Part shown: piece by piece, positions 2-48,201 of the stretch
Position numbering within the stretch: position 1 is the first letter of the stretch
Layout: every line of letters begins with the position of its first letter
Assembly: GCA_001724265.1 (NCBI GenBank)
Contig: MEDY01000140.1
Span: 1 to 64,000, forward strand
DNA: 64,000 nt
From: Rhizaria sp. SCN 62-66
Lineage: Eukaryota
Direction: 5' to 3'
The notes under the pieces: model-generated
The model's input: only the letters and a program-made list of their open reading frames with translations
The model's database searches: none
What the model was told of the DNA's origin: nothing
Translations under genes and position numbers: made by a program

Positions 2-879
2 GTGTACAAAGCGTTCTGCGTGCGGCTCTGCGACGTAAGTGTCGTCATTCTCGGTCAAGACCCCTGCCCCCGCGCGGAAGTCAACGTTTACTTGGAGGGG
101 TCAACGGAAGTCAGCGAAAACAAGCAGACAAACAACGGTTTCGCGTTTTGCACATGCGCAGACTGGACCGAAGATTGCCCTCCTTCGGTGCTCAACGTGA
201 TCGAAGAAATGTACAACTGCATGGCCCCGCCGCACTGCAGTATCCGCTATGACGACATGATCGACCCGCTGTTGAATCGCATCGACAAGCAGATCCCCGA
301 TGCCATGCTGCACGATCACGGCCGGTTTCTCGCGCGCCAGGGCGTGTTGCTGCTCAACTGCGCGTTGACCGTAGGTAACGAAACGCCTGGCTCTCACGTC
401 GGCGCGTACCGACCGCTGACGCGCGCGGTGCTCTCCGCGGTCGTTCAGGCGCGACAGGGCAAGGTCGTGCTTATCACTATTGGCAAGACCGCCGCTGAAA
501 TGGTTGAAGGAATTGCCGGAGGGTTCCTGGCCCACTTTGAGACGGGCCACCCGTCGACACTCAACCGGCAGGCGTTCGTTGAAGGAGCCAAGGGCCAGTT
601 CGTCGGTTCAGGCGTGTTTCGCGGCGCTAACGACGTCTTGCTGCGGCACGGGGTCGCCACGTACAGTCACAAGCGCGGATCTACCCAGCGCGCCGTCACC
701 GGTGTGCATTGGCTGCCGCCGGAGTGGCTGCCGGAGCGCTGGCGTCACACGCCGCAGTTGAGCTCCACTGAAGTCAAGCTGGAGCCGCTGCGCAAAGGGC
801 TCTGGCAACGCTCCTCACAGTTCGGGAAACCGCCGCCGTGCAATATGTCTCGCGCTCGGCCCGCGAATGATCTCGCCTC

Positions 880-921
<42 letters not shown>

Positions 922-1465
922 TGAGAGCGAGGTCGAAGAGAATGGCAACGGTGGAAAGTCTCGCGGTGGTTGGGCGGCGTATTGGGCTCAACGCAGAGCG
1001 CGCGAAGCGCAAGACGAGAACAAGGGCGAGGTCGAAGAGAATGGCAACGGTGGAAAGTCTCGCGGTGGTTGGGCGGCGTATTGGGCGCAACGCAGGGCGC
1101 GCGAAGCGGAAGAACGCGAAGAGCAAGACCGGCAAGAGCGTGCGCGCGAAGCGGAGCGGGAAAGGCGCCAACAGCACCAGGAGCGGCGGCGGCAGTGGCA
1201 TCAGGGAGGCGCGCGCGGCAAGCGGCGCTATCAAGACGATGACGACGAGTCTGGGGAGCAAGAGGACGACGATGAAGACCAAAGGGGCCGGCGCGGGTAC
1301 CGTGGCTGTGGCTATGGTCAGTGGGGTCAAGGACGCGCACAGAACCGTTATGAGAAGGAGCAATATGACGATGCTGAGGAAGAAGACGATGACCGCGAGG
1401 AAAAGGCCAAAGCTCGGAGGCTCTTCTGGGCCCGGAAGAACGCCGCACAAAAGCGCTGGCGATGA
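2..1465 (+). CDS. Divergent uracil-DNA glycosylase family-1 (UNG-like) protein, 5'-partial, with acidic/Arg-Gly-Trp-rich C-terminal tail
   Basis: Motifs VVILGQDPC (53-67), NGFAF, PPSVLNV, ARQGVLLLNCALTV, GSH, HPSTLN, F-GSG-F-AN-L, VHW in UNG order; ends TGA; the N-terminus lies outside the window. Confidence 0.88.
881..921 (+). repeat. (GAGGAC)n microsatellite encoding an EDEDED acidic run
   Basis: Direct reading of sequence. Confidence 0.9.
929..1108 (+). repeat. Two-copy 81-nt direct repeat (period 99 nt) encoding EVEENGNGGKSRGGWAAYWAQRRAREA
   Basis: 929-1009 and 1028-1108 differ only at two synonymous positions. Confidence 0.95.
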
Positions 1466-2824
1466 AGTACACATGGTCATGCCTGGGCGCTTGAACCATA
1501 TGATCGCAACGTCAAAGCAAAGTTGAGTTATTTTTCTTGAAGTGACTTAAAGTACAGAGGGTCCAATGACTTTGTCATCAATAGTGACGCACGCTAAAAA
1601 GACGTGCAAAAGATGCGACATCTCGAAAAAGCACATCAGAACGTGCGCACGACGGCCGGCTAATAATGCACTTTTGTTTTTCGGCTCAACCACCATATTC
1701 CTCCCTCAACATTGGTCACAGTTCAAAGAGAGGTAAGGGGCAAGGGGAAGAGCGAGCAGATGACATAATAAGTATCGACCAAAAAGACACCAACTTTGAC
1801 CGCCTCACTCGTCATCAGCCTCCGCACTATTCTCCATGCTCACAGTTTTTTCAGCACACCCGGGATTTGTATGGTGTAAACTACTTTTACACTCACGAAT
1901 ATACTTGAACAAGTTCGTCTTGGAGCGCGGCGCTTTGGTGCATGAGGTAGATGATCTTGTAGGGAATGGTGGTGTGGTTCAGGCGCTTGAGGAGGAACAG
2001 GGATGTAAAGCTGGCGGCGTAGCTGATGGGAAAATAGTACGCCCCGCACTCCATGGTGTTTGCGGGGGGTAGCCCTCTGCGTGTGGCCCCTCCGCATCCC
2101 CAGTCTTTATCAGCTCCTCAAAGATAGCAACTTTGAGCCACCAGACCATGTAGGGCCCCCTCCGGACCGGTACTCCCGAAAGCGCATCCTTGTGACGTGT
2201 GCTTAAGTTCAACCTTTTGTCCTCTGACATCTAGTCTTCAGGTGAAAATGCGATATAGAGGGTTGATGTCTTTGACCTGAAGTTTAGAGGGCGGTTTGAG
2301 CCGTTTGATGGGGCTAATCTACACGTATACTGCAAGACACACAATAATACTTAAAAAACGTATTTTCAACTACGCATAAATTACAATTCATACCGTTAAA
2401 TTTACATCGACGGCTATTTCATGTGGTAATCCAGTGATGTTTTTTGGGGATGGGGAGTCTGGCCGAGTGCCGCCACACCCAATTTGTGACCCCAGTGTGA
2501 GTGACTTTCTCCCCGAGGTCTTCAATGTCGTTGTGTATGACGCACAAGCGGCGTGTAATCGGAGGTGTTTTTTTATTTCGAAATAAATATGTATCATTGA
2601 TAACTGCTTTGATTGGATGTGAATGAGTTAACGCGAACTTTCCGCCGTAACTCCCCGCGACAAAGATTGTCCCCTTTCTGTGGGTCAGCCCGTCCAGCAC
2701 ATGACTCATCCCACATATTCTGACAGACCTACGCATGAATCAAACGGTATGATTTAATATAAGCACTGCTCACACGTGTGAAATGTGTATTGTGTTCTCC
2801 GTGTGACATTTAGCCTCTTTGCGG

Positions 2825-5731
2825 ATGAGCACTGCGAGGCTAGATCTCAAACAGCTCCACGACAAGGAGCGCGAATACCAACGCCTCTACTCCGCAGCCC
2901 GGATGGAAATGAAACGAGCTGAAGCCGCAGCTTCTGCCGCAGGCGCCATTCTTCCGGCTATGGATGGGCGCGTTATTGCAGCAACTGAGCATGCGAAGCA
3001 AGTTCACGCTGCTCTCGTGCAAGCCACGCAGGCCCTCGCTGCTGCCGAACGGGCACGTATGCCCGCCGCCGCTGCTGCAGCTCCTGCTCCCACTCCCCCC
3101 GTTGCGCCGACTCATGTGGCAAACGCGTCTCTCAAAGCGAAGCGTGCTCTTATGCAGCATACAGAACAAGCGTCCCTCGCACTCCGCCAGCAGGCGTCTG
3201 CCGCTCACAAGGCCCTAATCAATGCAAGGGCGCGTCCTCTGTCGCCCGATCCCGGCCAGGCCAAGCAGCAGCTCGACCAGATTGAGAAGCTTGTCCTGAC
3301 TGTCAGCGACCTTAGCAGCAAGGTGAATGCCGCCGTGGATGTTGCTAAGAAGGCGCTCAAGGAGTACAACTCGGCTGCTGCCTCCGCTGCTGCTCCCGCT
3401 GTTGCGCCCGCTGCGCCCTCTGCGCCCTCCCGCAACACTGCTGCGGCGGCTAAGTCCACAAACCCCGCACAGCCAGGTCAGCTCGCCAAGCTTCGTGCCG
3501 CGGCGACTGCAGCGCGGGCCAACGCTGATGAGATCGTTGCACGAGCGACTGCTGCGCGGATGGAGCTCAATGCGACCAAGGCGACTGCAGTGCCCAAAGA
3601 CGCTCGCCTGGCGCAGCAGCACCGCGATCTCATTAAGAACCTCGAGATCTTGGCAAAACATCATAGCGACAACGCATCTCGTGCGGGTGGCGAGGCGAAG
3701 CTTGCACAGGACAAGTATAACGCTGCTGTCGCGAAGGAGAGGCCGCTGCAGAACGCAAAGCCGAAGGCTTCGTCCAAGGGTCCTGAGGACGATGCCTCCA
3801 GCCACGCTACCGCCGCCGCGGCACGCAACGAGCTGCTCTTGCGTTATCAGGAGTTGCTGCGCGAGGCACGGACTCTTCAAGTCGCCGCGTCCGAGGCTAC
3901 CAAGACCGCGAACGCGGCTCAGCGCGCTCTCGCGTCCAATTCTAACGCTGGTGGCGCGCAGCAGCAGCGTGATCACGTCAACGCACTGAAGGCTGCCGGT
4001 AGGAGCGCTTGCTCAAGGGCCTCGATGGCCACAAACCTCGCCGACATTGCACTGCGCAACTACGAGGCTTTTGGCCGTCCCCTCGCAGTGCAGCAGGCTG
4101 CAGCGGCCAGACCGGCTCCAAACACCCGCCCGGCTGCTGCGGCCCGCCGTGCCGAGCAGCGCGTCCGTCGCCACGAAGAGGACCAGAACTACTCTGACGA
4201 TGAGGACAGCGACCGCAGTGACGACGATGACAGTGATGATGGCGGCGGTGGCGGCGGCGGTGATGATGGCGGCGGTGGCGGCGGCGGTGATGATGACGAT
4301 GATGACTACCCTGACGACGCACCGAACGCTCCGCGCATGAACGTTGCGTGGGAGTTTTACTCCACCACGTTACCGCACTACGACTGCGCCTGTCAGCCCT
4401 GTGTCAACAACAACTGTCGGTGTCGCGCTCGCCGCTGTATCGACGGCGTCAGGTGCCCCTGCGCAGACGTGCCCGAGTGGTACAACGATCTCGTGGAGAG
4501 CGATCCAAATATTCTGCTCCGCGTGCGTAGGTTGTTGAGGCGCGCCCACATTAAGCTTGACGAACGCAACTTCAACAAGCTTAAGAAGAAGCAGGAGGAG
4601 AGTGGTGAGCCTCTGCTGCCCGAGACTGCCCGCGCCAAGAAGCCGTACTGGGACGAAACAACGGAGATCACTCCTGCATTCCGCACTCAGCCGACGGAGC
4701 CCAGTGTGATTTTTGCTGCCTTTAAGCATGTGCCGCTTCACAAGGTGCGTGTTGTCGTGCTCGGCCAAGACCCCATGACTCGCGAAGGCGGTGCCAACGG
4801 CTACCCTTTCTGCTCAGCCACGGACGACATTAACGATGCGCACAACACGGTTGTCAACGTACTGCACGAGATGCACAACTGCACCAACAATGGTGTAACC
4901 GAGGTTTTAAGTTAGCCCACGCACATGAAGAACTTTACCGACCGCATCGTCAACTGCACTGAGGACGCGCCGTTATCCAAGCACGGTCAGTTCCTTGCTT
5001 CTCAAGGCGTGTTGATGCTTCATTCTGGGCTTACAGTCGCGAACGACAACCCGCGCTCGCACTTGCACGCGTGGCGACACTTTACACAAGCTATTCTTCG
5101 ACTCATCGTGCACACAAACCCGGACGTCCTTATCGTGCCTATCGGTGTGGTTGCGCGTGACATGGTGGCCACATCGCTCCTTGGTGTTAACTACAAAAAA
5201 CTGTGGAACGCCCGCTCACGCCGCCGCGTGCACGAGCTTGTCACGGGAACCTATATCGAGCGTGACGAGGACTGGATTCTCCACGACAACGTCGGTGCGG
5301 GCATTACTGCTGCTGGTCGCCGGATGTTTCGCCCATCCCAGATCTTTTACGCTGGCCACCCGTCGAAGCGGAATAGTGATTTGGAAAAAAGGGGCGCGCT
5401 GCACCGTTTCATCGGCTCCGATGTGTACCGCAAGGTGAATCGCTATCTTGCATAGCACGGCCGCGACCCCGTGCACTGGCTGCCCGCCGACTGGCTGGGG
5501 CCCCAGCCCGACTACCTCGATGACGAGCCGCTTGACATCGCCGACGAGGCCGAGATTCCCGGCTACATTAACGCGCCCCGTGGCCAGGATCATGTGATGC
5601 GCCGTCTGCCTGTGCCGGTGTCAATGGCCGACCTGGTGCCGCCTGTCCTGCCCGAGCCTCCGGGCCAGGAGGGCCCTGAGGGCCCTGCTGGCCCTGGCCC
5701 TGCTGCTGGCCCTGAGGGTCCTCATGCGTAA
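2825..5731 (+). CDS. Second UNG-like protein (~968 aa): N-terminal Ala-rich helical repeats, Asp/Gly linker, Cys-rich cluster, UNG-like domain; two in-frame TAG codons (4913, 5453)
   Basis: ORF-track pieces 2819..4915, 4925..5455 and 5471..5731 are one frame separated only by TAG; motifs VRVVVLGQDPM, ANGYPFCS, ASQGVLMLH-LTV, HPSKRN, NRYLA*HGRDPVHW span all three; ends TAA. Confidence 0.8.
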
Positions 5732-29143: not shown

Positions 29144-29202
29144 AGAACCATCAATCAACAAAAGACGTATCAGAACCATCAATCAGCAAAAGACGTATCA
29201 GA
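29144..29202 (+). repeat. Intergenic 28-nt tandem duplication (2 copies, 1 mismatch)
   Basis: AGAACCATCAATCA(A/G)CAAAAGACGTATC at 29144-29171 and 29172-29199. Confidence 0.9.
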
Positions 29203-32391: not shown

Positions 32392-35300
32392 TTACATTTG
32401 CTTGTCATCTGTCATATCGATAACCTTCGATGCCACCGCACTTGTGGCCGCAGCTGCGCTCGCAGCGGCAGCAGTCGTCGTCGCAGCGTTTGCGGCTGCA
32501 GTAGCAGCAGCAGCAGCAGCAGAAGCAGCAGCCGCCGCTGCCGCATTTTTAGCGGCAGCGTTGGCGGCCTGCACGGCTGCGTGTCCGATCATGCGCTCAC
32601 CCATAGTGACATCCCAGACCAGCCCCGCGCCCGTGCCCGCCGCAGTGGACGCGTTGGCGGCGGCCAACAGCACGCGCCGAGCCAGCGCCCGGCGCGGCCG
32701 CGGCATCGCGCGCCACCACGCCGCCGCGCCGCGCTCGTCCTCATCCTCATCGTCCTCGTCTTCGTCCGCGGTGACGTCCTGCGCCGCGTCAGAGCCGCAG
32801 CCGTCGCCGCCTGCGACCGGCCGCGGGCTACGGGGCGGGCTAGGCCGCGCGGCCGCTGCGCCTGACGCGGTGCGCTTGCCGCGACTGCGACCGTCGCTGG
32901 CTTGCTCGTACGCATGGAGAGGACGCGCAGACATGTTGGTGCGTCCCGGCCAGGGCCAGGGCTGCTCGAGCGTGGCCAGCAGAACGACGCCGCGCCCGCC
33001 GCTGCCGACGTCACTGCCGCCGCACGCCGTCGCCGCGGCCGCAGCGCCCTGAACAGCAGTGCGCGCGTGCGCGGCCGCGAGCAGGGCTGCGTCGTACCGT
33101 GACAGCGCCGAGGGCTTCGCCTGCAGCCGCGCACGCGAAAGCGCGGCCTCAGCTTCGTCATCGCCCTCGGGCACCACCGCGCTCGCCTCGGCGGCCTCGG
33201 CGGCAACGGCGGCTTCGGCGGCGTCCGCGGCAAAGGCGGCGGCGCGCGAGCCAGACGGCGCCCAGAGCCGCGAAAGCTCGCTGTACAGCGTGGTCAGCAG
33301 CCCCAGCGGCGCGCGCGAGAGCCAAAGGTCGAGCCGCGGCAGCACAAGCACCGACGCAGGCGGCGGCGGTGGCGGCGCAGATGCGGACGCAGACGCAGCG
33401 TGCGCGTGACCACCGGCGTGCCTCGAGCCCGCAGCGACCGCGGCCACCGAGGTGTGATCGACGTGGCTCTGCGCGAGCTGGCGGGCGGCGGACACGGCGG
33501 CGGCGAAAGCCTCGGTCACGGCCCAGCAGGCCTCGGCGCCGGCGTCGGCCGTGGCGTCGGAGTCGGCGGCGGAGGCCAGCGCGGACGCCAGAGCTGCGGG
33601 CACGCCGGCGGTGACGAGCGCGGAGACCGACTGCGAGGCCGCGGCGGTGGCGGCCGCGTGCGGTGCAATGCTCGGCAGATACAGATACTGGATGGGGCAC
33701 TGCGCGAACGGCCCCGCAGCGCCCTCGGTCGTCGCGGCACTGTTAGACCGCTCGATGGCGCTGCCGGAGTGACCGTGAGCGAGGACCTCGTGGAGCAAGT
33801 CGCCTGGGCAGGACGCCAGCAGCAGCGAGCGCAGCTGCGGGGGTAGACGCATGCGCGGCGGTAGTGCCAGCAGAGGTCGCGCGGACGCAATGGGCGCAAC
33901 ACTCACAAGCGGCGGCGTAGATGCCGGGAAAGTGTCTGCAGCAGGAGTTACACCAGAGGCGATCGCGCTTTTGTCAGTCAATGCAGCAGTCACTGCCTTA
34001 CACGCGCTCGTTTTGGTGGACGCAGCAGCAAGGTACGCGGCAAATGCAGCAGCCGCAGAAGTGTGCCCACGGAAGCCGAAGTCACTACTCGCCGTGGGGG
34101 CGTTGACAAGAGCGGTCGCGGCGGCAGCGCCTCCGTTGGCAGCCACCGTCGCCGCCGCCGCAGCAGCAGCAGCCGCCGCAGCAGCAGCAGAGGCAGCAGA
34201 GGATAACGGCGCAACGGGCGCGGCGAGCGCTGCGACTAAAGAGAGCGCCTTGCGCGTGCGGCGCAGCATCGTCGCCGAAGCCGCGCTCCACAGCTGCCCG
34301 TGGCCGCCACCAGCGCCGTGGCCTGTGGCTGTTGGCGGCAGGCAGATGCGCGACAGCAGATACCCCGCGTGCCGCGCCCACGGCGTCGGCGGTGCGGAGG
34401 GCATCTCGGCCGCCGCTGCCGCAGCCGCAGCAGACTCCGGAGTCGCGGTGTCGCTGCTGTGGAGGCCCGACGCAGCGAGCGAGGCGAGGAGCCCGCCTGC
34501 GCCGCCGTTGGCGCTGGCGAGTGCGTCGGCGCCAGCAGTGGCAAGCAAGAAAGGGTTCGCGTCGCCAGTACGGGCGATCGACGGCTTAACTTTGAACAGA
34601 GCCTGGTCGAAGTGCCTGTCGTGCACGCACACCAGCTCCAGGTTCAGCGGCGCAGTGAACGCGAGCGGCGTGCCTTCAGCTGCGGCGGCGCCGGACGGGG
34701 TGGCGGTGAGCGCAGGAGCGCCGGTCTCGAGCTGGTTCTGCTCCGAGGCCTCGGAGATGGCGCAAAAGAGCGCCTCGCGGCACAGAGCCTCCATGTCCGC
34801 GCCAGAGTAGCCCACAGTAGCCGCCGCGACGCGCGACAGCGACAGGGGCGCACCGGAGGTGCTGCTCGTCGTGCCGGCAGTGGCGGCAGCGGAGGCCGCC
34901 GCGGTGGCAGCGAAGACAGCGCGAGCCTCAGCCGCGTCGGCGGCCGCGCTTGCAGCGGCGATATTGGCGATCGAGGCCGCAGCTGACGCAGCAGTTGCGT
35001 CACCCGAGTCAGCGTCCGCATTCACCGAAGCGAGCAGTGCCGCAACCTTGCTGTGGGTCTCATCAGCCTCAGCACGGGCAGTCTGCGCAGCCGCTGCGGC
35101 CGCGCGGGCCGCGTCACGAAGCGCGCGCTTGCGGTCGCTCTCACGCGGCCACTTGGAGGTGACGCGGCGCAGGATATCGAGGCGCCCCGCGGCGTCGGGC
35201 AGCCCGACCTGGATCTCGCGGTCGAAGCGTCCCGGCCGGCGCAGCGCGGGGTCGATGGCGTCGGGACGGTTGGTCGCCGCGATCACGGCCACGCCGCCGC

Positions 35301-38300
35301 GCGAGCCGACACCGTCGAGCAGCGAGAGCAGCGTGGCCACGATCGACGAGTGCACCTGGTCCTGGCGCGAGGACCGCACGGGCGCCAGCGCGTCGACTTC
35401 GTCCAGGAACACCACGGCGGGCGCCATTTGCGCCGCGAGCGCGAACAGATCGCGCAGCCGCCGCTCGGTCTCGCCGTAGAAGCGCGAGAGCACGTCAGAG
35501 CCCTTGCGCGCGAAGAAGCTCACGCGCGCACCGCGCAGCCAGCGCTGCGGCGTCGTCGCCCAGCGCAGGCGCGGCGGCTGCGGCGCGTCGGGTGGCTGCC
35601 CGTCCGCGGCGCCCGGGGCCGCCGGCTGGCCGCGCTTGCGGCGCGGGGTGACGCCCAGCAGCGAGAGCGTGCCAGCCCTGACCGCGGCCTTTTCTTCCTC
35701 GGTCAGACCTTCGAAGTCACTGTTCTCTTCGTCGTCATCGTCGTCCTCCTCATCGTCTTCCTCGTCGTCGTTATTCTTGTCCTCTTCGTCGTCGTCGCTG
35801 CCCTTCTTGCCTTTGCCCTTCGTACCCTTGGTGTCTTTGTCCTTGCCCTTGCCATGCTTAAGCTTCTTGCCGTTAAGGTCAAGCCCCAGTTTCTTCTGTG
35901 CATGCTTGAACGCGCGCAGCCAGCTGCCCACCTCAGCGCCAGCGTCTGTGGGCACTGTAGCGTACGCCTCCGCAGCAGTGATTGCCGCCGCCGCAGCGCT
36001 CTCGGCGACAGATGCAGCAGCCTTCGCCGCCGCTGTAGCAGCTTTGCGCGAGCCTGCGGTGGCGCCAGCCGCCAGTTCAGCCACTGCGGAGCCTGCCGTG
36101 GACCAGGAGGAGAGTGTGTTCGCAGGGGCACGAGTCTCACGGGCACTACGGCGTGAAGCGGCGGCACGAGCAGTGTTTCTATCTTCACGATCCTTTGCGT
36201 CTGCGTTCGTGGACACTGTTGCCACAGGGGCGCTACTGGCGACAATCGGCTTCTGAGCAGCAGACTTAGCGGCACGCTTGCGCTTGGCGACATGTCTAAC
36301 ACGGCGTTTCTTGCGGGCGCCGCCATCGTCGTCGTCATCATCGTCATCGACGTCGTTGTCGTCATCAACATACTCATCATCGTCGGCGTCCATATCGTTG
36401 CTATCATCGTCATCGTCGTCGCTCGCATTGTTGTACGCAGTGGCCTCAGCAGCGTCTTCATCGCCGTCACTGAGCGCGGCAGAGGCGCGCGGCACAGGCG
36501 CTCCACCCGCGGCCTCAACACCGGCCGCAGCCATCGCCTCCTCCATCGCCAGCTTGACTGCGCGCGCGACGCCCGGCGCCGCGGCGTCGCCGCCGTCGAA
36601 GCAGAGCGCGTCGCACGCCGCCGCGACGGTGCGCGCAAGCAGCGTCTTGCCTGTGCCGGGCGGGCCGTGCAGCAGCACGCCCGACGGCGGCTGTGCAGAG
36701 AAGCGCGCGTACAGCCCCGGGCACGCGAAGGGCAGCAGCAGGCCCTAGACGAGCGCGGTCACCGCGGTCGTGTTGCCGGCGACGGCGCGCCACGCCGGCG
36801 AGCACCGCAGTCGCGTGAACAACTCGACGGACCGCGCCGTGAACAGCGGACCGTGGTTCACTGTCGTTGCCGTCGCCGACGCAGAGGACGAGGCAGTTGA
36901 CTTGACAGGCGCTGCGACAGTCGACGCAGAGGCAGCAGCCGCAGCAGCGACTGAGGGTCGCCCTGCGAGAGCACGGATACTGTCCTCGTCACCCACCGCA
37001 GTGATGGCGGCGGCAGCGATGCCCACAGTCGTACCAACGGTAGTCGCACTGTCAGTCGCGTCGCCCATTGCGGAGGCCATCGGCGTCACGAAGTGCAGCG
37101 TGTCGAACACGGGGGCCGCGGAGGCGGCGTCCGCACGGCGTTGCTGCGGCGGCGCAGTGGCGATGGATACGAGCTCCTTGGCAGCAGCCGCGCACACCGT
37201 CGCCAGAGCGGCGCCGCCGGCCTCGTTGGCAGCGGCCGCGGCGGCCTCGAAGCGTTTCCACGCGACCGCGCCAGCGCGCGCCCTGTCAGCGGCCGTCACG
37301 GGCTCAGCCTCAGCGAAAACGTCACCAGCGGTGAGCGCCGTGGCCGGCGCGTCAACCGCGGCGGCCGCGGCGAGGTAAAGCTTGGTGGCGACGGCGTCGA
37401 GAGGTGAAAAGGTGTAGCTGGAGACCGACGCAGAGAGCGCGCGCACGCGGTCGCTGTCGCGCAGGCCCACAGTTGTCGTCGCCGCCACAGCCTCCGCGCC
37501 TGCCGGCGTCACCGTGACAGCCGTTGGGGCAGCCTCAGTGGCGACGGGTGCGTCCGCGCCTGTGGCAGCAGCAGCAGCAGCAGCGGCAGCAGCGGCAACG
37601 GCAGCGGCCGCGGCGGCCGACTCGGGATCCGCATTTTCGGCCGACTCAGCAGGCGCTGCAGACACCGCCGCGGGAGGCACGTATGAGTCAAAGAAGCGAG
37701 CCTGTTGCCGCTGCTTTGCGATGAAGCGGGCCAGCACGCGAGCGGCGCTGCGGGCGCGCGCGGCCACCGCGTTGACACGGGCCGCAGCAATCGAAGCAGC
37801 GTTCTTCTCACGAGCTGCGTTTGTCACTGCCTTTGCGCTCTCATCGGTGGCACCAGAGACAGTCGACTCTGCAGCGACAGCTGTCGTCGCGGCTGCGTTT
37901 GTGACAGGCTTCTCTTTAACACTAGTGACAAGCGCGTGCCAAGCAGCCTGCTCCGCAGTGCGCACGAACATAAGATAGCGCAGCGCGCGCGCGGCCTTGG
38001 CGCGCTCGAGGTTCCGCGCTGTCGCCATCGCCTCGGCCGCGCCGCCAGAGGAGCGCGCGGCCTCAAGTGCGGCAGTCGCAGCCTTGGCCGCGGCCTCGGC
38101 CTGCGCGAGCGCCTGCTGCGCCGCTGCGGCTGCGGCGGCTGCGGCCTGCTCGCGCGCCTTCTTGCTCATCTTGCGCATGCCCGCCGCGGTCGTCGTCGGC
38201 GCATTGGGGTCGTTCTGGGCCGACGAGGCGGCCGCGGCAACCGCGGCGGTGGCGGCGGTGGTCGCCGCTGTCACAGCAGCCGCCTGCGCGCGCGTCGCGG

Positions 38301-41300
38301 TCTCGGCGGCCGCGGCGGCCGTTGGCGGCACCCAGAGCACCTCCGCGCCCGCAGCAGCGCCCGCGGCCGCGGCGACAACAGCGGCCTCTTCGGCGCCCAG
38401 CGCAGCAGCCGCGGCCGTGGGGATCGTCGAGAGTGGGCGCCGGCGGTGGCGCGAGTTGACCAGCGCGACAAGGCGGCCCAACTTTCCTGGCAGTGGCAGC
38501 CGGGGAACAAGAGAGGTGTCGTGTGAGCTTGAAGCAGGAGCGGGCGACAGGAGCAAACCGACTGTTGGCGTGGGAAGAGCCACGGCAGCGCCAGCGTCGG
38601 TCACTGTCGCGGATGCTGTCGCAGCCTCGGGCTTACGCTTGTCGTCATAGTCTTCGTCGTCGCTGTCGCTGTCATTACCGAGTGCAGAGGCCAAGCGCGA
38701 ACGCTTGCTGGCCTTGGCTTGGCGCATCCGGCGACGAGTGCCAGCGCTCATATCTCCGTCCTCCTCCTCTTCCTCCTCCTTCTCATCATCACCGTCGTCA
38801 TCAGCCAGCAGACGCTTGCGTCCCTTGCTTTTCTTAGCAGCAACGGCGGCAAGCTCCTGCTCTTCCTGATCCACAATCGCACCAGTGGCAGTCCAGACAG
38901 CCGCCGTCGCCGTCTCCGCGGTCGCAGCATCCCCGCCTGCCGCGATGCGCGTCGCGCGCACACTCTCCTCGAGCACTTCGAGAGCGCCCTTGCCAGTGGC
39001 GGGTCGCGAGCTCATCGCAGTCCACCACGCAGACGCCGCGTTGGGATACAAACGCTGCGCCGCAAGCGCCGCGCGCAGTCGCCGCTCGCGCCGCTCGACG
39101 CGGCGCTGCGCGCGCCACTCCTCGAGGGTCAGCGGCACGCTGTGGTCGCGGCGCGTCAGTGGCAGAGCCGCGCGGCCACCGCGCTGCAGCGCTGCGGGCG
39201 CGAGGCGGGACGCGGCTTCAGAAAGCCACGCCGCGGCCGCGGCCGGGCGTGCTGCGGCCAGCGCGGCCGTGGCAGCCGCCGGCAGCGCGCTTGCGGCGCC
39301 CGTCAACGGCTCCGACGCGACTGTGTACGCGTTGCTAGGCAGTGCAGCACGCCCAGTCAGCGCGGACAGCGGAGGCAGCAGCGGCAGCGCAGCCACACCG
39401 CGCGCGCCGTCGTCGACAAAGCGATCCAGGTTGCGTAAAAAGCTGTTGCGTGCCACAACCCCGTCGCCGGCCGTCGGTGCTGTCGCGCCACGCGTGCTTG
39501 CGTGCGGCCTGCGCTGGCGCGCAGCGCGCAACTCCCCACGGGCAGTCCGGCGCTGCTCGCTTACGGCGCTGATGTCGATGGACGCGGCCACGACAGAAGC
39601 AGCATTGCCCTCAATGCTCCCGGACATCGAGCGCGAAGCAGGCTTGTTGTAGATGTCAACGGCGTACTCAGCGGCTTTCACTGCGCGCGCCTCAGAGCCT
39701 GACAGGGGGACCGCGCTCAGCGCCGCGATGATGGCGCTGACCGACTCAGCGACCGCAGTGTCTCCACGCTGGCGGCGCCGGGATAAGCGTGAAGCAGCTC
39801 GCGCGGCGCGGGCTTCAGCACGCGCCTTCGCGCGACTTGCTTTGGCGTCCGTCGCAGCTTCACTCGCTGTCTGAGCGTCGGCATCGCCCTTCTTGGCGGC
39901 TGAATCAGAGCCTGAATCTGAGCCTGCGTCCGACTCTGAGGAGCTCTGCGATGTAGGTGTAAACTCGCACTGCGCGAGCTCCAAAGCCTCGACCACAGCG
40001 GAGTTCACGACTGCGCCCACGGCTCCCGCTTCAACACGCTCTTCATCTGTGCTATCGCTTTCGTCGCTGCTCGCGCCGCCCAGCAACGCCTCAGGCAGCG
40101 CCATCGCGAAGGGCCCGCCAGTCCACACTGCGCGGTTCGCGATCTCACGCGCGCCCGCCAGCGTCTGCAGCGCCACCGCGCGCGCCTCGATCAGCGCCGT
40201 CGCCTCGGCCACGCCCGCGTCCGCGCAGCCGAGGTGCGCGTCCCACGCCTTGGCTCCCGTGGCAGCGCCGGCGACCGCGCCCGCAGCGGTCACTGCGGCA
40301 GTAGGAGGGCCCTTGAGGCGCTCTCCGTCGTGCGCTGCAACGTCGGCAGCGTCGGCAGCGATGCTCGCAACGGCGGCGAGCGCGGCGGCGCGGCGGCCCG
40401 CGCGGACGCCAGTAGGCCTGAGCGGGAGCGCGGGCAGCGGTGCGTGCGGGACGCGTGACTGCATCATCGACGCGCGGTGATGATCCGGACACAGAACGGA
40501 GTATGACTGGTACTGCATGCCGCAGCCCGAGGCCGGATCGGCAGCGCAGGGCAGGTGGTACGTCTTGCTGCACGAGGGGACATTGCACCCGATGTTCGCG
40601 CCGACGCACTGGCACTCTGCGCACACACTGCCCGCGGCGCGCTCGATCTCGGCGGCGACGTTCCTGAGCACGCCGCCCTGCTGATACACCTGCGGCGACC
40701 ACAACGCGCACTCGTAGTGCACGGCGACGGCCTCCAGTCCCAGTGAAGCGAGGAAGCGCCGCGTCGCCATCGTCGCGGGTGCGCGCGCGTTGGGCTGGCC
40801 GCGTGCATAGAGCGCGCCCTCGAGCTCGGTGCTCATGAGCTCGCGCCTGCGCCGGTCTGTGCGCGACAGCGCCGAGGCCAGCGCAGAGCCGGGGCGCGCG
40901 TGCGTCGGCGTGCGGGCGGTCGACACCAGCAGCGGGCCCAGCAGCGCCTTGTTCTGCCGCCGTGACGTGGGCAGCATCGGCATCGCGTCCGCGGCCGCGC
41001 GCGCAGCCGCCACGGACGCCGCGCGCGAAGGGACGCCGAGGTTCGGCGGCTCGTATCCGCCCGCGGCGCCGCGGAAGACCTCGTTGCTGTTGCTTTCGCG
41101 GCCGAGCCCCATGTTGGCCTCGACCTCGGCCTGCGCGGTCGCGGTCGAGACGAGCGTGACATGAGCGACGCCGCGCGGGTGCAGCAGCGTCGTGCGCACT
41201 GCGGCCGAGGGCTCCAGTCGCGGCTCTGCGGCCACCGCCAGGTCCGCGAGCGACGGCGGCCGGATCGGCACCGGCGCGGTCAGGGCGGACGAGGTCGCCA

Positions 41301-44300
41301 ATGCGGCCGTGTCGCGCACGTGCATCGCATTGGAGCCTGTGCCGACGGACGTTATGCCGGCCGTGGCCGCCGCGGCCGTGGTGGACGAGGTCAGAGCGGG
41401 CGCCGACGCGCACATTGAGAGATTGTGGTTGGCGTAGAAGGCTGCGAGACGCGGTGTCCACCCTGTGAAAGTCGTCAGTGACCGCATGAAGGCCTCCTCT
41501 TGCTTCGTCAGCGCGGGCGCGTACGCCTCCTTGAGCGCGTTCTTGCCGCTGCCGTCGGTGTCCAGGTCATCGCTGAGATCTGAGTCGTCGTCGGCGTGAT
41601 TATCCACCTCGCCAGCCGCGCGCTTTGCCTTGGCGGCGGCCTTTGCAGCAGCCTTGGCAGCCGCTTTGGCGCCCGCAGCGGCCGCCTCAGTCTCGCTTGG
41701 CGGCTTCGCGTGCGCCGCGTCGATCGGCGCGGCGATGCTGGGCGGCACAGTGGCCCATGCAGCCACGGCAGCAGCCTCGGCGACGGCGTCCTGCATGCTT
41801 GCGCGGCCCAGACCCACGACGGCGGAGCCCGCGGGCGCGGTGCCCACCCCGTTGCCGCTAGTCGCAGCTTCTGCCGCAATGGCCTCGGCCGCAGCGGCAG
41901 TGCCAGGAGCCGGGAAGTACATCGCGGAGCCAGACGCGGCGTTGGGCAGCGCAGCGGCGTAGCCGGTGGTCGGTGGCAGCAGTAGTCCCGGTTCAGAGGC
42001 AGGCGCTGCCATGAGAGACGGGTCAGTCAACGGCCGCGGCGGGCGCGCGCGTGGTGCGGCGGGGAAGGCAGTGGCTGCCAGCAAGTGGAGTGCACCCGCG
42101 GGCGGCGTGAACGGCATCGACAGCACGAAACGCGCCTCCGCAAGCGCGGCTGACAGCTCCACAGCACTCATCTTGGCCGCGGCAGCGGGCGTGATAGGCA
42201 TAGGACCGTCAGCGCCGGCAGCGGCTTGGTCGTCATCATCGCCATCGTCGTCAGCCATGCGACTCGCTGCGCTACGAGGTGCCACTGGTGCGGGAGCAGT
42301 CGCCTCGCCGTCGCCGCTCTGTGTTTGTGTCACCGGCGCGTTCAGCGCCGCCATCGCGGCCGTGAGCGTCGCTTCGTCCGCCGCGGCGCGAGCCCGGTTG
42401 GCGTGGTGCCTGGTCAGGGCCGCGATGACTTCATCGCGCACGCGCCGCTTGAAATCGAGCAGCGCGTCGCGGTAACCGACGACGGCGTCGGCGTGCGCGC
42501 GCCGCGCCTCGGCCTCGCGCATCGTCTCCTTCATCAGCGCGTACGTGTCGAGCGCGGCCTGCGCGTGTGCAGGCGCCGGCAGCCCGGGCCGCAGACACAG
42601 CGCGCAGCACGGCGCCGCGACGGCGTCGATGGCGGCCCACGACGCCACGGCTTCGATGTCGTCGTCATCGTGCTCCTCGCCACCGACGAGCCCGTGGTCG
42701 TCGTCGGCGCACGAGTCGTTGCCGCTGTCGCTGCCGTGGCGGGGCTCAGCGAACGCGTCGACGGCGGCGGCACGCAGCGCGGGGAGCCCACCACCGCCGT
42801 GGTAGCGGAGAGGCCGCACGCCGCGCGCGGCCGCCGCGGAGTCGCGGTACGCCGGAATCGTGTCGACCAGCAGGCGCGGCAGCATGCGGGGCTGCGGGGG
42901 CGCCGCGGGCAGCTTGGTCCTCGCGGGCGGGGCGGAGAGCCAGCGAGACGCTGCGATCGAAGTGTCGTCAAGCGAAGGTACGTGATTTATGGCGCACCGT
43001 GACTCCTTTTCAGACTCGCTGGTGATGTTGTTGTCACCATCATCGTGCGTCTGTGCCGGCGGGAGCAGTGTGAGCGAATTGACGATGTTTTCCGCTTCCG
43101 ACTCAGAGTCGCTCGAGATTGACAGCGCTTCAGAATTGGGGGTCTCGTCAGACGACTCTGAGTAGTCAAGCATCGCGCGTCTCCTGCTCTTGGCGTCGCT
43201 CACCTCTCCAGCTGCAGATGCAGCGGCGGCGGGCTCTGTATCTGTCGTTGTCGCTGTTGCTGCCACTGCAGTGGCCTCTGCGTCGGCCTGAGACTTGACC
43301 GCCTTCGCAGCCGCAGCCTCGGCAGTCGCGGCCTCGGTGGCAGCAGCAGCCTCAGCAGCAGCAACCTTCGCAGCCTCCGCAGCTGCTGCCTCCTCGGCGT
43401 CCTCGCGCTCGAACTGCGCGCGCATCGCGGCCATTTCCTCCTGCGCAGTGCGCGGGCGCGGCACGGCGCGGCGGTGCTGTCCCGTCCCGTCGCCGTGGTC
43501 ATCGTCCTCGTCGGCGTAGCTCACCGCGGTCACCGCCGCCAGCGACGTCAGCGCAGAGAGGATCGCGCGCGACCCGCCCGCGCCGGTGCTCGCGCCGCTG
43601 CGGATCGACGCCGCGCGGGAAAGACCCCCGGCCACGAATGATCCGACGGCGGAGACGGGGACAGCGACGGGGCGCGACGGCGAGTACGGCATCGAAGCCG
43701 AAGACGGCAGCGCAGCGCCGGCGCGCAAGGCGGTGGGCAAGCGCGCGGGCACGGAGAACGAGACCGACGATGCCTTGTTTGACGGAGACGTCGGGACTGC
43801 AGACGCTGCAGCAGTGGCAGGGCTTTGCAGCGACGCGGGCGTCGTGCGCGAAAGGGGTAAATCCCCAGCCGCGCCTGTAGGCGCTCCATCATCATCAGCA
43901 GCAGCAGCAGCCTCAGCAGCAGCGGAGGCGGCCACAGCGGCCGCAGTGGCGGTGATCGAGGCGGGCAGCGGCGTGAGGAAGAAGGGCGACGACACAAAGC
44001 CCGCGGGAATGTCGTTGACTGCAGTCGCCGCTGACGAGGCCGCGGGCGACATCGGCGGCTGGTTGGACCGGGGACGGCCGCGCGTGGGCGCGGGCGTCGC
44101 TGCAGCGGCGGCCAGCAATGTCCTCGCCCTTGTCCTGATCTGGCCGGTCGGCAGGGTCACGTCGAGCGCGGCCACGCTGTCGCTGCTTTCAAGACTCGCG
44201 GTGGCCGCCGCAGTGGCTGCAGCTGCGGCGGCGACGGCACTCGCTGGCACGCCCCTGTGCAATGCAACGGACGCGCGCCAGCCGTGCTCCGCGACGAGCG

Positions 44301-47226
44301 CTGCGTCCTCCTTCGCGTTCTCAGTGCGCTTCGCTTTGCCCTTGAGCTTGCTCTTGCTCTTGCTCTTGCCCGGATGAAGGGCCTCCTCGTCGTCCGCGGC
44401 AGCGTCGTCGCCGTCGCCCGTCTCGGCGGCATAGCGCGGCGGGGCGACCTTAAGCGCTCCGGCGCCGCCCCTGCGCTGCAGCTCGGCGATGCCCGACCGC
44501 GTGAGCCCGCCGGTGCAGAGCGGGCACCGCCACACGCCCTCTGGCGGGTCGCGCGCGAAGCCGATGCAGCGCAGATGGTACGAGCCGGGGCACAGCGGCA
44601 TGTCGCAACACAGCAGCTCGCCGCCGTCAGCGCACACGAGGCACAGCGGCGACGACGCCAGCGCCTGTGCGCGCAGAGAAAGAAGCGACTGCGTGCCCGC
44701 GCACGGCGGGCAGTCCCAGCGGCCCGGCGGCGGCGCTTCGAGCCGCACGCACGTCGGGTGGAAGCTGTCGGGGCAGTTGTCGCAGCAGAGCAGCTCGCCC
44801 GCGCCCATGCACACGCGGCAGTAGTCGGCGCTGCTCTTGACCACGCCCGCAGTGTCGCCTGCCTCGCACTGGCCCACGCACCGCGGGCAGCTGAACATCA
44901 AGCCGCCGGGGGTCGAGCACGCGTCGCGCGGCATCAGCACGTCGTGGCGGTCGTCGCCACTGCTGGCAGCGCTGCCTTCCGCAACTTTGTCGTCGACGAT
45001 GAACAGAGGCAGCGGGATCCCGCGCGATGACGCCGCCGTGGCCGCCGTAGCGACCGACGCGGCCAAGCACTTGGCGTGGATGCGAGTGGGGCAGCCGCCG
45101 CGACAGGCGACGAGGACCAGCTCGGCGCGCTTTGACTTGGACTTCGCCGCTTCCGAGTCAGCGCCGCTGCTCTTCTGATCGTCGCTGTGACGCTGACTGG
45201 GGATACGGTCATCGTCGTCCTTGCCACAATAGCAGCACAGGTCGCGCTTGGGCATCGCGCGCAGCAGCGAGCGCAGCGGGGTTGAGAACACGCTCGCCGC
45301 CGCAGCCGTATTTTGCATCGCGCCAGAGCCGCTGCCGCTGCCGCCGCTGGTGGCGCCACGGCGGGATATGTGGCCCCCGCGCGCCGCGACAGCCGCGGCC
45401 GCGGCGGCGCTTTGTCCGGCGTACAGCAGCGCTGCGGTCGCAAGCGGCGGCAGCGCGCCAGGCTCGTCCTCGTCGACCGCACTAGCGCCGGCGCCGGCCT
45501 GCGGCAAAGTGGCCTGCGCCAGCGCTGCCTGCACCGCGGCAGCCGCGGTCATCGGCGGCGCGGCGGGCTGCGGACGCGAGCGGCTCCCGCTGCTGCTCGG
45601 CTGCGCGCGCTGCTGCTGCAGCTGCTGCGCGAAGAGCTTTTGCGCGACGAGCGCCGTGTTGACCGCGGAGGCAGCGACTTCGCGGTGTGCGACGGCCGCG
45701 TAGCCCGTGCCGTAGGGCTCCAGAGCGACGGCAACGGGCTGCGGCAGCGGGGCTGCCATCGCGCTGCTGCCGGGCTTGCCGCCCAGCAAGAGCGTGACCC
45801 TGGCGGCGGCGGGCAGGCGCGCGGCCGCGACGCCGGCGAGCACCTCGGCGGGCAAAACGCGGCCCACGCAGCACGGACACACGAACGCGTCCGGGTCCCC
45901 GCCCGCGCGCGCGAGCAGCTCGCTCATGGCGGCTTGGCTTTCGAACAGCGCGGCGGCTTCGTCCAGAGTGCGCACACCGTACTCGGCCCCCACGTCGACG
46001 TTGCCAGCGGCCGAGGCCCGCGCCTTTGCGTCATCCGCGTCGGTATCAGCGCCAGCGCCAGCGCCAGCGGAAATGTCGGGCGGAGGCAGTTCCGCGGTGT
46101 AGCGGCGCACTGCGTCGCGCGTGACGAGGCCGGCGCGCGCGCACACAGCCAGCGCGCGGAGGTAGAAGCGGCGGCGGTGCGCGGCGGCGCGGCGCGCGGT
46201 GGCCACGCCGGCGCGCGCGAGACAGCGCGGGTGGTACTCGTGGCGGCACACTACGCACCACCACGCCCGCGACGACGACACGGACGGCGACGCGGCTGCG
46301 GTTGATGTGGACGCTGCGCCCGCGTTAGCTGGCGCCAGAGCAGGGCCAGCAGCAGTAGCAGCAGCAACAGCCCCGTCCGTCATATCAGTTGCCGAGACTG
46401 TGTCCGTGTTGGTACTCGCACGAGGCGCGACTATAGCGCACTCGCCGCCGCCGTTATCGCCGTCGCAGTCGTCGTCGTCGCTGATGCTGTCTGCGTCTGT
46501 GGCGACGCCGCAGAGCGCGCAGGCGGCCTCGTCGTGCGGACACCGCGCGGCGGCAGCCGCAGCGGCCACAGCCTCTGGCGCCAGCGCAGTCAGAGTTACG
46601 GTCGGCGCAGCGACGCGGAGGCTGTGTGCGGTCCCGCCGTGTGCAACGGAGGTGCGGCTGTGTGTATGGCTGTGCGCAGCGTTGGCTTGGTGACTGGGCG
46701 CAGCATGTGCGTGGTGACTGTGTGCTGCGGGGGTCGAGTTTGCGAGCTGGAGCCGCAGCGGGACAGCGGATGCGCTAGCCGAGGCGGCAGACGCTGCCGT
46801 GGCAGTCGCAGCCAAGGGAAATACTTGTGCTGGCGCCGATGGCGCCACCGTTGCTGCCGGCGCATGTGCTTGTGCCAGTGCAGGAGCTGAAGTTTGAGCT
46901 TGATCTTGTGTCGATGCGGGTGCAGTCGCAGCTTTGTCGGCAGTCTTGGTCCGGTTGCTGGTGCGACTGGGCCTGTCGTCGAGGCGGCTGGAAACAACTA
47001 CGACGTCGCTGCCATCGCTCTCGCTCTCGCCGCTGCTGCTGCTGCTCAGACTGCTGCTGCTACTGACCTCGCCGCCGCTACTGCTGCTGTCAAGCGTTCT
47101 GCGCTTGGCCGGAGTCGCGGCCGCGGCTGGCTTCGTTGGGGCCGTCTTAGAGCTGTTTGACTTGGTCGCAGCGGCCTTGCTGATTACGGCTGTCCTACCG
47201 CCATCATCACCATCGTTGTCGTCGCC

Positions 47227-47263
<37 letters not shown>

Positions 47264-47334
47264 GACTCGAGCTTGCGGAGCACCTTCTGCGCAGGGGCAG
47301 ACGCAACAGCAGCGCCTGTAGACGAGGATGATGA

Positions 47335-47374
<40 letters not shown>

Positions 47375-48201
47375 TAGGACGACGATGACGCAGTCAGCTG
47401 CAGCCGCAGCCCGGCGCCGGCTCCGGTGCCGCTGCCCAAAGGCGCGGGAGCGGGCCCAACCGAGCCGCGGGGCAGCGCCAGCGATACCACTCCAGACTTT
47501 GAGCTCGAGACGGAGCTCGCACTTGTTTTTGCAGTGCTGCCTCCAGTGGTCGAAGACGCAGCCACATTAAGCCGCAGATTCGCGCCCCCACTGTTGCTGT
47601 TGCTGCTCTTTACGCTGCTGCGCTGCGAGTTGCTGTTGCTATTGCCACCACGTCCGCGGCTGTCGTTGTGGTAGATGTACCCCGTCTCCGAGTCCGAGCT
47701 CGAGCTCTCAGCGGCCGCCGCGGACGAACGCAACGGGATCGGGATCGAAACAACGCCGCTGCTGCCGCGCGCGCCACTGCCACCGTGGCGCTGCTGCGAG
47801 TGCTGCGCGGGGGCGGCGCCCTTGTCGTGGCTGGTGCCACTGCTGCGGTTGCCACTGTGACGGTCACTGTGACTGTTCCTGTGGGCACTATGACTGTGAC
47901 TATGCCCGTGACCGTGACTATGACTGTGGCCGCCGTGGAGGCGCGATGCCCCCGCTGGGCCCGACACGGCCGCGGTAACCTGCGCAAGGCGGCTGGCAGC
48001 AGCGTCGCGCTGGTGGTAGCTGGCCGAGGCGTGGCGGCCGTCCGCCAGCGGGCGCGACACTGCCGCGGCGGCCGAGAGCAGCTGGCGAGTCGCGCGCACC
48101 CCCGGCGGCAGCAGCGCGGCCGCCGCGGCCTCAGACTCGGCCGCGGACGCCGTGGGCGCGGACGGGGTGCTGCCGCGCGTAGGGCGGTGGTGACCTGACA
48201 T
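32392..48201 (-). CDS. Giant (~5,269 aa) chromatin protein: several PHD fingers, AT-hook-like RGRP, extended PHD (HC5HC2H) and ATAD2/Yta7-type AAA+ ATPase; two in-frame TAG (47374, 36745)
   Basis: ORFs 47374..48201, 36745..47283 and 32392..36678 share one frame broken only by TAG; canonical PHDs at ~44510-44825; [10 protein letters not shown]...HLPCA...CPDH at ~40480-40725; [57 protein letters not shown]; ends TAA. Confidence 0.8.
47336..47373 (-). repeat. (TCG)n poly-Ser microsatellite immediately following the in-frame TAG
   Basis: (GAC)n on + strand. Confidence 0.9.

Follow-up and report, generated by a model that had tools for sequence, protein, structure and literature searches.

A UNG-derived protein with a rebuilt base pocket and two in-frame TAG codons on a contig assigned to Rhizaria

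The classic case of an enzyme confined to a single base is family-1 UNG. The 64,000-nucleotide stretch of contig MEDY01000140.1 (Rhizaria sp. SCN 62-66) analyzed here, referred to as the window, carries two neighboring genes for UNG-derived proteins, paralogue 1 and paralogue 2, and in the second of them the positions that restrict UNG to uracil are occupied by other residues while two TAG codons stand in the reading frame. The locus raises the question whether paralogue 2 still is a uracil-DNA glycosylase (UDG), has moved to another base, or is merely a copy in decay. We found that its C-terminal domain descends from family-1 UDG, beyond chance similarity. From the sequence we tentatively favor a re-specified, non-uracil glycosylase or a base-flipping reader, with a rough probability of 0.42. 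The genes and the domain concerned are the following:

Positions 2825..5731, plus strand: whole paralogue 2 gene from the first ATG to TAA, 968 codons including two in-frame TAG codons, no intron seen.
Positions 4667..5500, plus strand: UNG-derived domain of paralogue 2 with a family-1 UDG fold (Pfam, PDB phmmer, AlphaFold, Foldseek).
Positions 2..1465, plus strand: paralogue 1, the comparison partner, with its 5' end cut by the window; motifs GQDPC, PPS, GVLLLN and HPSTLN.

We assessed the family assignment by sequence and by predicted structure. A phmmer search of the PDB with paralogue 2 gave 45 matches at E <= 1, all of them uracil-DNA glycosylases with the D. radiodurans UNG as the best (E 2.8e-12); paralogue 1 gave 40 such matches at the same threshold. 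The AlphaFold model of the UDG region, built on a 63-row alignment, showed a mean predicted local distance difference test score (pLDDT) of 74.0 and a predicted template modeling score (pTM) of 0.75, and within the UDG core most 10-residue blocks had mean pLDDT values of 79–97, with one block at 68. Foldseek comparison with the PDB yielded 76 matches at E <= 0.001, with a probability of 1.00 to UNG structures. The Foldseek matches listed are all family-1 UNGs: those of Epstein-Barr virus (EBV) and Kaposi's sarcoma-associated herpesvirus (KSHV) come first (ranks 1–4), then D. radiodurans and E. coli, with top target-normalized template modeling (TM) scores of 0.67–0.71 and an identity to the EBV and KSHV enzymes of 18–20%. 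Paralogue 2 thus has the family-1 fold by model, Foldseek and phmmer.

The positions that shape the base pocket are located as follows:

Positions 4763..4777, plus strand: motif A, GQDPM; water-activating Asp kept at 4769-4771, Tyr gate replaced by Met at 4775-4777.
Positions 4808..4810, plus strand: base-stacking Phe, kept; Phe in 7/7 family rows and 53/56 canonical rows.
Positions 4841..4849, plus strand: HNT, replacing the DNA-pinching PPS loop according to the alignment.
Positions 5006..5023, plus strand: GVLMLH strand, with His at 5021-5023 where the uracil-reading Asn is expected.
Positions 5162..5344, plus strand: insertion region between the G(S) loop and HPS, about 48 residues without counterpart in canonical UNGs or paralogue 1.
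Positions 5357..5395, plus strand: motif B, HPSKRN, with the 7-residue loop extension SDLEKRG; His kept at 5357-5359, Leu wedge replaced by Arg at 5369-5371.

The key positions were compared in an alignment of 63 rows, 7 from the family and 56 canonical, the latter being a chosen subset of the best 150 HMMER matches together with 6 word-index matches. The Asp of GQDPY and the His of HPS, each found in 56/56 canonical rows, are Asp and His in paralogue 2 as well. The Tyr of GQDPY and the Asn of GVLLLN are also found in 56/56 canonical rows each, and here paralogue 2 shows Met and His. At the PPS loop, for which the canonical rows have P in 41/56, P in 41/56 and S in 53/56, it shows HNT, and at the Leu wedge, where Leu is the commonest canonical residue (22/56) and Arg occurs in 6/56, it shows Arg. 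An earlier note on this locus, made from the letters alone, had named Met 4775, His 5021, HNT, the Arg, an insertion ahead of HPS and the retained catalytic Asp and His, and translation together with the canonical alignment bears all of this out; the insertion, put there at about 45 amino acids, comes to about 48 extra residues by alignment. Three changes go beyond that note: the GS loop is replaced by Gly-Val (GV), the Leu loop is longer by a 7-residue extension after HPSKRN, and paralogues 1 and 2 have an insertion between motif A and GVLLL in common. AlphaFold modeled the insertion of about 48 residues as two helices (295–312 and 320–329) with block pLDDT values of 54–74. Paralogue 1 has GQDPC but keeps Asn, PPS and Leu. 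The neighbors have indeed diverged at the same specificity positions in different ways, as the note had stated (GQDPC/Asn/PPS/Leu against GQDPM/His/HNT/Arg).

We then determined whether these features are shared by relatives. A HMMER search with the domain over 1.84 billion representative proteins gave 2,073 matches at E <= 0.001, only three of which reached E <= 1e-30. Two of the three (P0002 and P0067) are fragments of paralogue 2 itself, a further fragment (P0206) standing lower in the list, and the third is P0068, a protein of 883 amino acids with 54% identity over the domain (E 1e-106). By BLASTP P0068 and paralogue 2 are 49% identical over 412 residues, covering a cysteine motif and the whole UDG domain. 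P0068 has an uninterrupted open reading frame over both TAG positions, shares the eight-Cys motif and, partly conserved, the insertion of about 48 residues, and carries WLPAEWLG at its C-terminus; its pocket motifs read GQDPL, GVLLLQ and NPSSSN. P0069 (222 amino acids) and P0070 (526 amino acids) are orthologues of paralogue 1, and P0070 shows GQEPS and HPSLEN. A word-index homologue search with the domain (212–678 amino acids) gave 65 matches, among which only the gene itself exceeded 35% identity.

In a maximum-likelihood tree, a quick one whose careful search was unfinished, the 7 family rows form one clade with a support of 100 in the Shimodaira-Hasegawa-like approximate likelihood ratio test (SH-aLRT) and a stem of 1.79 changes per column. 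Group A (support 98) contains paralogue 2, P0068 and near-copies, group B (support 88) contains paralogue 1, P0069 and P0070, and each group includes both lineages. The duplication therefore took place before at least two lineages separated, and each of them retained both copies. Paralogues 1 and 2 are true, old, retained duplicates, and paralogue 2 is no orphan. A literature search on inactive UNG paralogues in protists found nothing relevant.

All 7 family rows have the motif-A G, Q and P, the Ser-His and the motif-B P-S; the Asp of motif A is found in 6/7, the exception being Glu in P0070. Variation falls on the sites that give UNG its uracil specificity and its DNA pinching, namely the Tyr site with M, L, L, L, C, C, S, the Asn site with H, Q, Q, Q in group A and N, N, N in group B, the PPS loop, and the Leu site with R, S, S, S, L, L, E. 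The motif-B His site varies as well, with H, N, N, N, H, H, H. By sequence, paralogue 2 fails the family-1 definitions (GQDPY as given in PMC5449639, HPSPLS, the Asn, the PPS and GS loops and the Pfam gathering score). The motifs of family 2 (MUG/TDG), GINPG and MPSSSAR, are also absent, only NPSSSN of the orthologue recalling the second, and motif A of family 3 (SMUG), GMNPG, is not matched by GQDPM. Motif B of SMUG, HPSPRN, agrees with HPSKRN of paralogue 2 at 5/6 positions. Since the orthologue has NPSSSN, this SMUG-like motif B is not a trait of the family.

A re-specified glycosylase or reader is favored because the family has retained GQDP, the stacking Phe and the motif-B P-S but shows variation at the specificity positions, as if the scaffold still depended on the water-activating loop and the stacking platform and had given up selection for uracil. 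Several observations weigh against this reading. The residues at the motif-B His, Asn and Tyr sites differ between orthologues, although enzymes usually fix such positions. At about 14 pocket and DNA-contact positions the identity between the orthologues is, by our own reading, about equal to the domain average, so that no extra constraint on the pocket is apparent. Moreover, the Pfam UDG family PF03167 scores 22.6 bits on paralogue 2 (E 1.2e-4), below its gathering cut-off of 24.3; P0068 with 22.9 bits also falls below the curated cut-off and P0070 has no Pfam match, while paralogue 1 lies above it with 27.0 bits.

Because the orthologues disagree at the His, Asn and Tyr sites, a non-catalytic pseudo-enzyme has to be considered as a serious rival, in which the UDG fold would act as a DNA- or protein-binding reader or scaffold beside the Cys module and the pocket would drift without any excision. 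The D4 protein of poxviruses, a UDG fold that serves as a polymerase processivity subunit independent of catalysis, provides a precedent. The differences between the orthologous pockets (M/L, H/Q, H/N and KR/SS), the Glu that replaces the catalytic Asp in one group-B member, the very long stem branch and the fact that the Cys motif and not the pocket is best conserved would all fit such a protein. Nevertheless, G-Q-D-P, the stacking Phe, Ser-His and P-S are kept in 6 to 7 of the 7 rows despite the long branch, which makes unconstrained active-site loops hard to credit, and Asn in place of the motif-B His does not by itself kill catalysis, family-2 enzymes using Asn at this position. We regard a pseudo-enzyme as possible though doubtful. 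The proposal of the earlier note that the family explores non-uracil substrates or reads modified bases is upheld only in part: the pockets are rebuilt, but that of the orthologue differs again, which agrees with ongoing re-specification and no less with a relaxed non-catalytic pocket.

The presence of Asp, His and Phe in paralogue 2 would also be compatible with a mainly uracil-directed, perhaps broadened glycosylase acting as a second or organelle-targeted UNG in uracil repair, and BdiUng, an enzyme of the GQDPA class, is reported to excise uracil still (PMC5449639). With both the Tyr and the Asn of the 56/56 canonical rows replaced and PPS, GS and Leu altered as well, with an orthologue that lacks the motif-B His, and with a 500-residue N-terminal half and a Cys module unlike those of repair UNGs, we consider continued uracil repair the least probable of the explanations discussed here.

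The re-specified glycosylase or reader presupposes that the gene is translated through its two TAG codons. The TAG codons of paralogue 2, the motif downstream of them and a second interrupted gene of the window are located as follows:

Positions 4913..4915, plus strand: first in-frame TAG (TAG 1), within a loop of the insertion that paralogue 1 also has, opposite Arg in the orthologue P0068.
Positions 5453..5455, plus strand: second in-frame TAG (TAG 2), where the last confidently modeled helix ends (372–382, pLDDT block 96–97); canonical homology goes on beyond it.
Positions 5471..5500, plus strand: VHWLPADWLG, a family-specific conserved C-terminal motif downstream of TAG 2, kept in P0068, paralogue 1 and P0070.
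Positions 32392..48276, minus strand: PHD/AAA gene, a 5,295-codon frame interrupted only by TAGs at 47376-47374 and 36747-36745.

When TAG is read as sense, the frame of paralogue 2 is open over 2807..5731 with TAA at 5729-5731 as terminator, and the translation of 2819-5731 on the plus strand is interrupted only by TAG at 4913 and 5453. Public gene callers split the gene into P0002/P0219, P0067 and P0206, where P0002 terminates at TAG 1, P0067 is the piece between the TAGs and P0206 the tail; the span 4763-5485 considered in the earlier note corresponds to the C-terminal third of the gene. Both TAGs are real, since they are identical in independent assemblies: contig L001 of the Joint Genome Institute (JGI) equals window positions 3939-5594 with 0 differences, both TAGs included, and over 4266-5607 a contig from DNA run X4, which belongs to a different study, likewise shows 0 differences and both TAGs. 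A contig of run X2 spans 4318-7450 with four differences, the places of which are not listed.

If both TAGs were nonsense mutations, paralogue 2 would be a young pseudogene whose product stops at residue 696 (codon 697 being the TAG at 4913), so that only the first third of the fold would be made. Two premature stops under the standard code, the rarity of in-frame TAG, the inconsistent residues aligned to the TAGs and the fact that TAG is the expected nonsense codon at GC3-rich usage (GC3, G+C content at third codon positions) are in line with such a decaying copy. On the other hand, the 968 codons contain no frameshift, TAA or TGA, whereas two neutral nonsense hits should, as a rough estimate, bring several indels. 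GC3 is 0.63–0.83 on either side of each TAG, with coding-level values of 0.68 and 0.83 after the TAGs. Homology likewise continues. Following TAG 2, HGRDPVHW stands against canonical HGRAPIDW, and HMMER aligns '..NRYLAxHGRDPVHW' to the C-terminal helix and Trp of the D. radiodurans, B. thailandensis and S. aureus UNGs, and neither the near-invariant Trp nor the family motif WLPADWLG is damaged. At TAG 1 the spacing of the conserved flanks is the same as in P0068 and within one residue of that in paralogue 1. The same pattern recurs in the PHD/AAA gene, assemblies of different studies agree exactly in sequence, and contigs from RNA libraries cover TAG 2 and the 3' end. Taken together, we judge a decaying copy to be quite unlikely. 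We also tried a tiny in-frame GT..AG intron of 12 nucleotides at TAG 1 and rejected it, as confirmed introns are AT-rich and 100–200 nucleotides long and the lengths of paralogue 1 and P0068 match.

The codon usage of the window was analyzed in the same context. Among 15,081 confident codons we counted 5 in-frame TAG, 0 TAA and 0 TGA, that is about one TAG per 3,000 codons, the off-frame counts in this codon set being 529 for TGA, 98 for TAA and 65 for TAG. Four of the in-frame TAGs (4913, 5453, 36747 and 47376) are flanked by coding sequence on both sides and the fifth, at 56622, is a possible stop. About 13 gene ends lie in the window, of which 0 to 2 may use TAG; likely ends use TGA or TAA. 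The product of the PHD/AAA gene combines PHD fingers with a PHD-like zinc domain and an AAA ATPase, and by its domain order we take it to be ATAD2/Yta7-like. One of its TAGs sits in a TCG-encoded poly-Ser run, the other 23 codons upstream of the Walker-A P-loop at a site that is Glu in 3/4 of the printed PDB alignments reaching it and Ser in one. A further TAG at 13689 in a poly-Gln run might hint at Gln; it possibly lies outside the coding region.

Other observations speak against a changed code. The TAGs at 50746 and 56622 are near 3' gene ends and may be real stops. Codons that become TAG by a single base change (CAG 410, GAG 713, AAG 470, TCG 329 and others) far outnumber the precursors of TAA and TGA, and because GC3-rich usage makes the TAG precursors dominate, random nonsense mutations would mostly be TAG anyway; on these precursor counts, the exclusive occurrence of TAG in frame is rejected as strong proof of recoding. 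No consistent residue stands opposite the TAGs: the orthologue has Arg and Ala, paralogue 1 has Arg, UNGs of the PDB have Lys or Ser, and AAA proteins have Glu or Ser. Finally, neither tRNA genes nor Rfam families were detected in the 64-kb window. Weighing both sides, UAG is probably translated in the source organism, by reassignment or efficient read-through, at odds of roughly two in three. Nuclear reassignments of UAG only have been described for Rhizaria sp. exLh, Iotanema and some phyllopharyngean ciliates (PMC5304391, PMC11687900). The earlier note had taken TAG to stand for CAG, i.e. Gln. Translation of TAG looks probable, but Gln is not established, and the one conserved site in the PHD/AAA gene points to Glu.

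Transcription was assessed from contigs of public sequencing runs. In the complementary DNA (cDNA) run X5 the intron of the neighboring aspartate aminotransferase gene is removed, with a joint from 7809 to 8015 that skips 205 bases between GT and AG. Since this intron is spliced out, run X5 contains RNA. The same run has contigs on paralogue 2 at 3772-4262, 4490-4753 and 5397-5995, the last with TAG 2 unchanged and extending 264 bases beyond the TAA, and the polyA-RNA run X7 has one at 4427-4682. Paralogue 2 is thus probably transcribed, on the evidence of contigs for which DNA carry-over is possible, and absence of a transcript, which the earlier note had named as grounds to abandon its idea, was not observed. 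TAG 1 is spanned by none of the listed RNA contigs, and RNA libraries can contain DNA, which counts against the favored reading; the stretches of paralogue 2 outside the listed RNA contigs, TAG 1 included, are uninformative either way.

If the favored reading of a re-specified glycosylase or reader is followed through, paralogue 2 would be a live gene of an uncultured, GC-rich, intron-bearing eukaryote, with a product of about 968 residues that comprises an Ala-rich half, an eight-Cys module and the UNG-derived domain, its two UAG codons being translated as sense codons or via efficient read-through. The parts presumed to bind DNA, flip the base and activate water would be retained in G-Q-D-P, the stacking Phe, Ser-His and the P-S of motif B, and in paralogue 2, though not in its orthologue, also in the motif-B His. 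All determinants that restrict the enzyme to uracil would be lost, the Tyr gate against C5 substituents having become Met and the Asn that reads the face of uracil His, along with changed PPS and GS loops, an Arg in place of the Leu wedge on a loop longer by 7 residues, and a gain of about 48 residues predicted to form two helices. A non-uracil pyrimidine could then be flipped into the enlarged pocket and either be slowly excised or held there. C5-substituted bases such as 5-hydroxymethyluracil, thymine-like bases or modified cytosines would be the likeliest substrates. Together with paralogue 1 (Tyr to Cys, Asn kept), paralogue 2 may form an old, retained pair of re-specified UNG derivatives. 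That the lineage both decodes UAG as an amino acid and keeps a conserved UNG-derived pair excising or reading modified pyrimidines of the 5-hydroxymethyluracil or modified-cytosine type appears unlikely as a combined claim.

Upstream of the UDG domain the protein has two further parts:

Positions 2825..4309, plus strand: N-terminal half, 26% Ala, mostly predicted low-complexity or helical, with an acidic/Gly run at its end.
Positions 4337..4483, plus strand: eight-Cys motif MNVAWEFYS..YDCxCxPCx4CxCx4Cx5CxCADVPEWY, directly upstream of the UDG domain and aligned with P0068.

For the N-terminal half Pfam showed nothing significant at E <= 1 and the ESM Atlas no usable match, and BLASTP revealed no similarity between the N-terminal halves of paralogue 2 and P0068. 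An internal repeat suspected by eye gained no support from self-BLASTP. The 63059-bp assembly from which P0002 derives differs from the window in the number of Gly/Asp repeat copies in paralogue 2, by one copy at about 4250-4300. The eight-Cys motif is the best-conserved stretch in the alignment of paralogue 2 with P0068, and a reduced version with 4 Cys precedes the UDG domain in P0070. It may bind metal, judging from its cysteines. AlphaFold was unconfident over this stretch (residues 18–54, pLDDT < 50), and no matching family was found for the motif. Searches of viral contigs and prokaryote genomes with Cys-motif patterns gave no relative of the UNG-derived family, and a pattern scan of JGI metagenomes gave one contig only, identical to the window. 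A word-index search with the 71-amino-acid Cys motif among longer proteins matched only its own gene; since even P0068 was missed, this negative is weak evidence.

The window itself is eukaryotic, with GC-rich exons and AT-rich GT..AG introns of 100–200 bases, and was found in runs of several studies on bioreactor, wastewater and activated-sludge samples. Its cellular neighbors encode an aminotransferase, ALG11, Rpc25, a UCH/DUSP protease, a DIS3L2-like RNase, a lipid kinase, a kinesin and a DUF3228 protein. The intron used above for the detection of RNA is placed as follows:

Positions 7810-8014: intron of the aspartate aminotransferase gene, canonical AT-rich GT..AG.

Similar AT-rich interruptions are seen at about 15335-15467 and 15800-15997 (UCH/DUSP gene), at about 21470-21570 (gene at 20199-22400) and at about 26085-26200 (DIS3L2-like gene). 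A search of 5.8 billion proteins gave no close relative of the DIS3L2-like protein, whose best non-self match scores 274 bits against 1582 for self and whose named matches are a mixture of chytrids, plants, algae and animals; in the ESM Atlas the aminotransferase matches only generic bacterial clusters. Genes are oriented in blocks, on the plus strand from 1 to about 28.4 kb, on the minus strand from about 29.7 to 58.7 kb and on the plus strand again from about 59.3 kb, with switches at 28441-29662 and 58704-59330. In the spacer between the paralogues, part of 2100-2450 has a contig depth of 250–320 in DNA runs, compared with about 6 around it, and many variant contigs. This stretch has the appearance of repeated or multi-copy DNA, or of sequence in common with other organisms of the samples. 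The acidic (GAC/GAG) repeat tail of paralogue 1 at 600-1200 draws many foreign contigs and leads to spurious joints in read placement.

Loss of the Tyr in every member of the family and of the Asn in one branch, with the water-activating loop kept, would, if true, represent a natural escape from uracil specificity. The most uracil-specific of all known glycosylases would have been re-specified in nature at just the sites that engineers mutate for base editors excising T or C, which would give ready starting points for glycosylase base editors, which now rely on engineered Y147A and N204D. Should the DNA of the organism carry modified pyrimidines, the paralogues would be candidate erasers or readers of these bases. 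The in-frame TAGs in otherwise intact genes make the organism a candidate for a UAG-only code change, which is rare outside ciliates.

A further group of natural UNG derivatives with altered motifs was noticed among metagenomic proteins. P0071, P0072, P0082 and P0087, not related to the family of paralogue 2, have tandem UDG domains, the second of which lacks the motif Tyr or His (e.g. GQEPP.., GQDPG.., HPAV.., HPIA..), and P0082 is in addition fused to an EndoIII-like N-terminus.

Compared with known systems, paralogue 2 resembles family-1 UNGs (D. radiodurans 2boo/4uqm, E. coli 2uug, EBV 2j8x, KSHV 5nnu) in fold and in the order of its motifs, sharing GQDP, the stacking Phe, the GVL.L strand, Ser-His, H-P-S and the C-terminal helix with its Trp. 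It differs from them by Tyr to Met, Asn to His, PPS to HNT, GS to GV and Leu to Arg, by the roughly 48 inserted residues and the 7-residue loop, and also by the insertion shared with paralogue 1, the 500-residue N-terminal half, the eight-Cys module and the in-frame TAGs. The UNGs of gammaherpesviruses (EBV, KSHV) are its top Foldseek matches despite their low identity. These viral enzymes have a leucine loop lengthened by several residues, which may be a likeness to the loop of paralogue 2; a comparison of the extended Leu loop with EBV and KSHV UNG gave only chance matches with so short a query. The viral enzymes keep Tyr, Asn and Leu and are uracil-specific.

Human UNG Y147A is reported to excise T and N204D to excise C, and both are used in glycosylase base editors (PMC11162499), so that the precedent drawn in the earlier note from the shift of N204D to cytosine is sound. 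Paralogue 2 is changed at the same two positions, in its case naturally, with Met and His combined and with remodeled loops. SMUG enzymes are described with motif A GMNPG and motif B HPSPRN (PMC5449639), and human SMUG1 is reported to remove 5-hydroxymethyluracil (PMC13230825). HPSKRN of paralogue 2 equals 5/6 of the SMUG motif B, the Arg included, and motif A is GQDPM against GMNPG, so that a family-1 motif A without its gate stands beside a SMUG-like motif B; this is a resemblance and not membership, the best sequence and structure matches of paralogue 2 all belonging to family 1. BdiUng (Bradyrhizobium Blr0248) is reported to excise uracil, 5-hydroxymethyluracil and xanthine (PMC5449639). 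Like paralogue 2 it is a natural protein that has GQDP without the Tyr and other residues in place of PPS and GS; as described in that source it differs by a family-4-like fold, no HPS motif B and a retained Asn, whereas paralogue 2 combines the family-1 fold and HPS with the loss of Asn.

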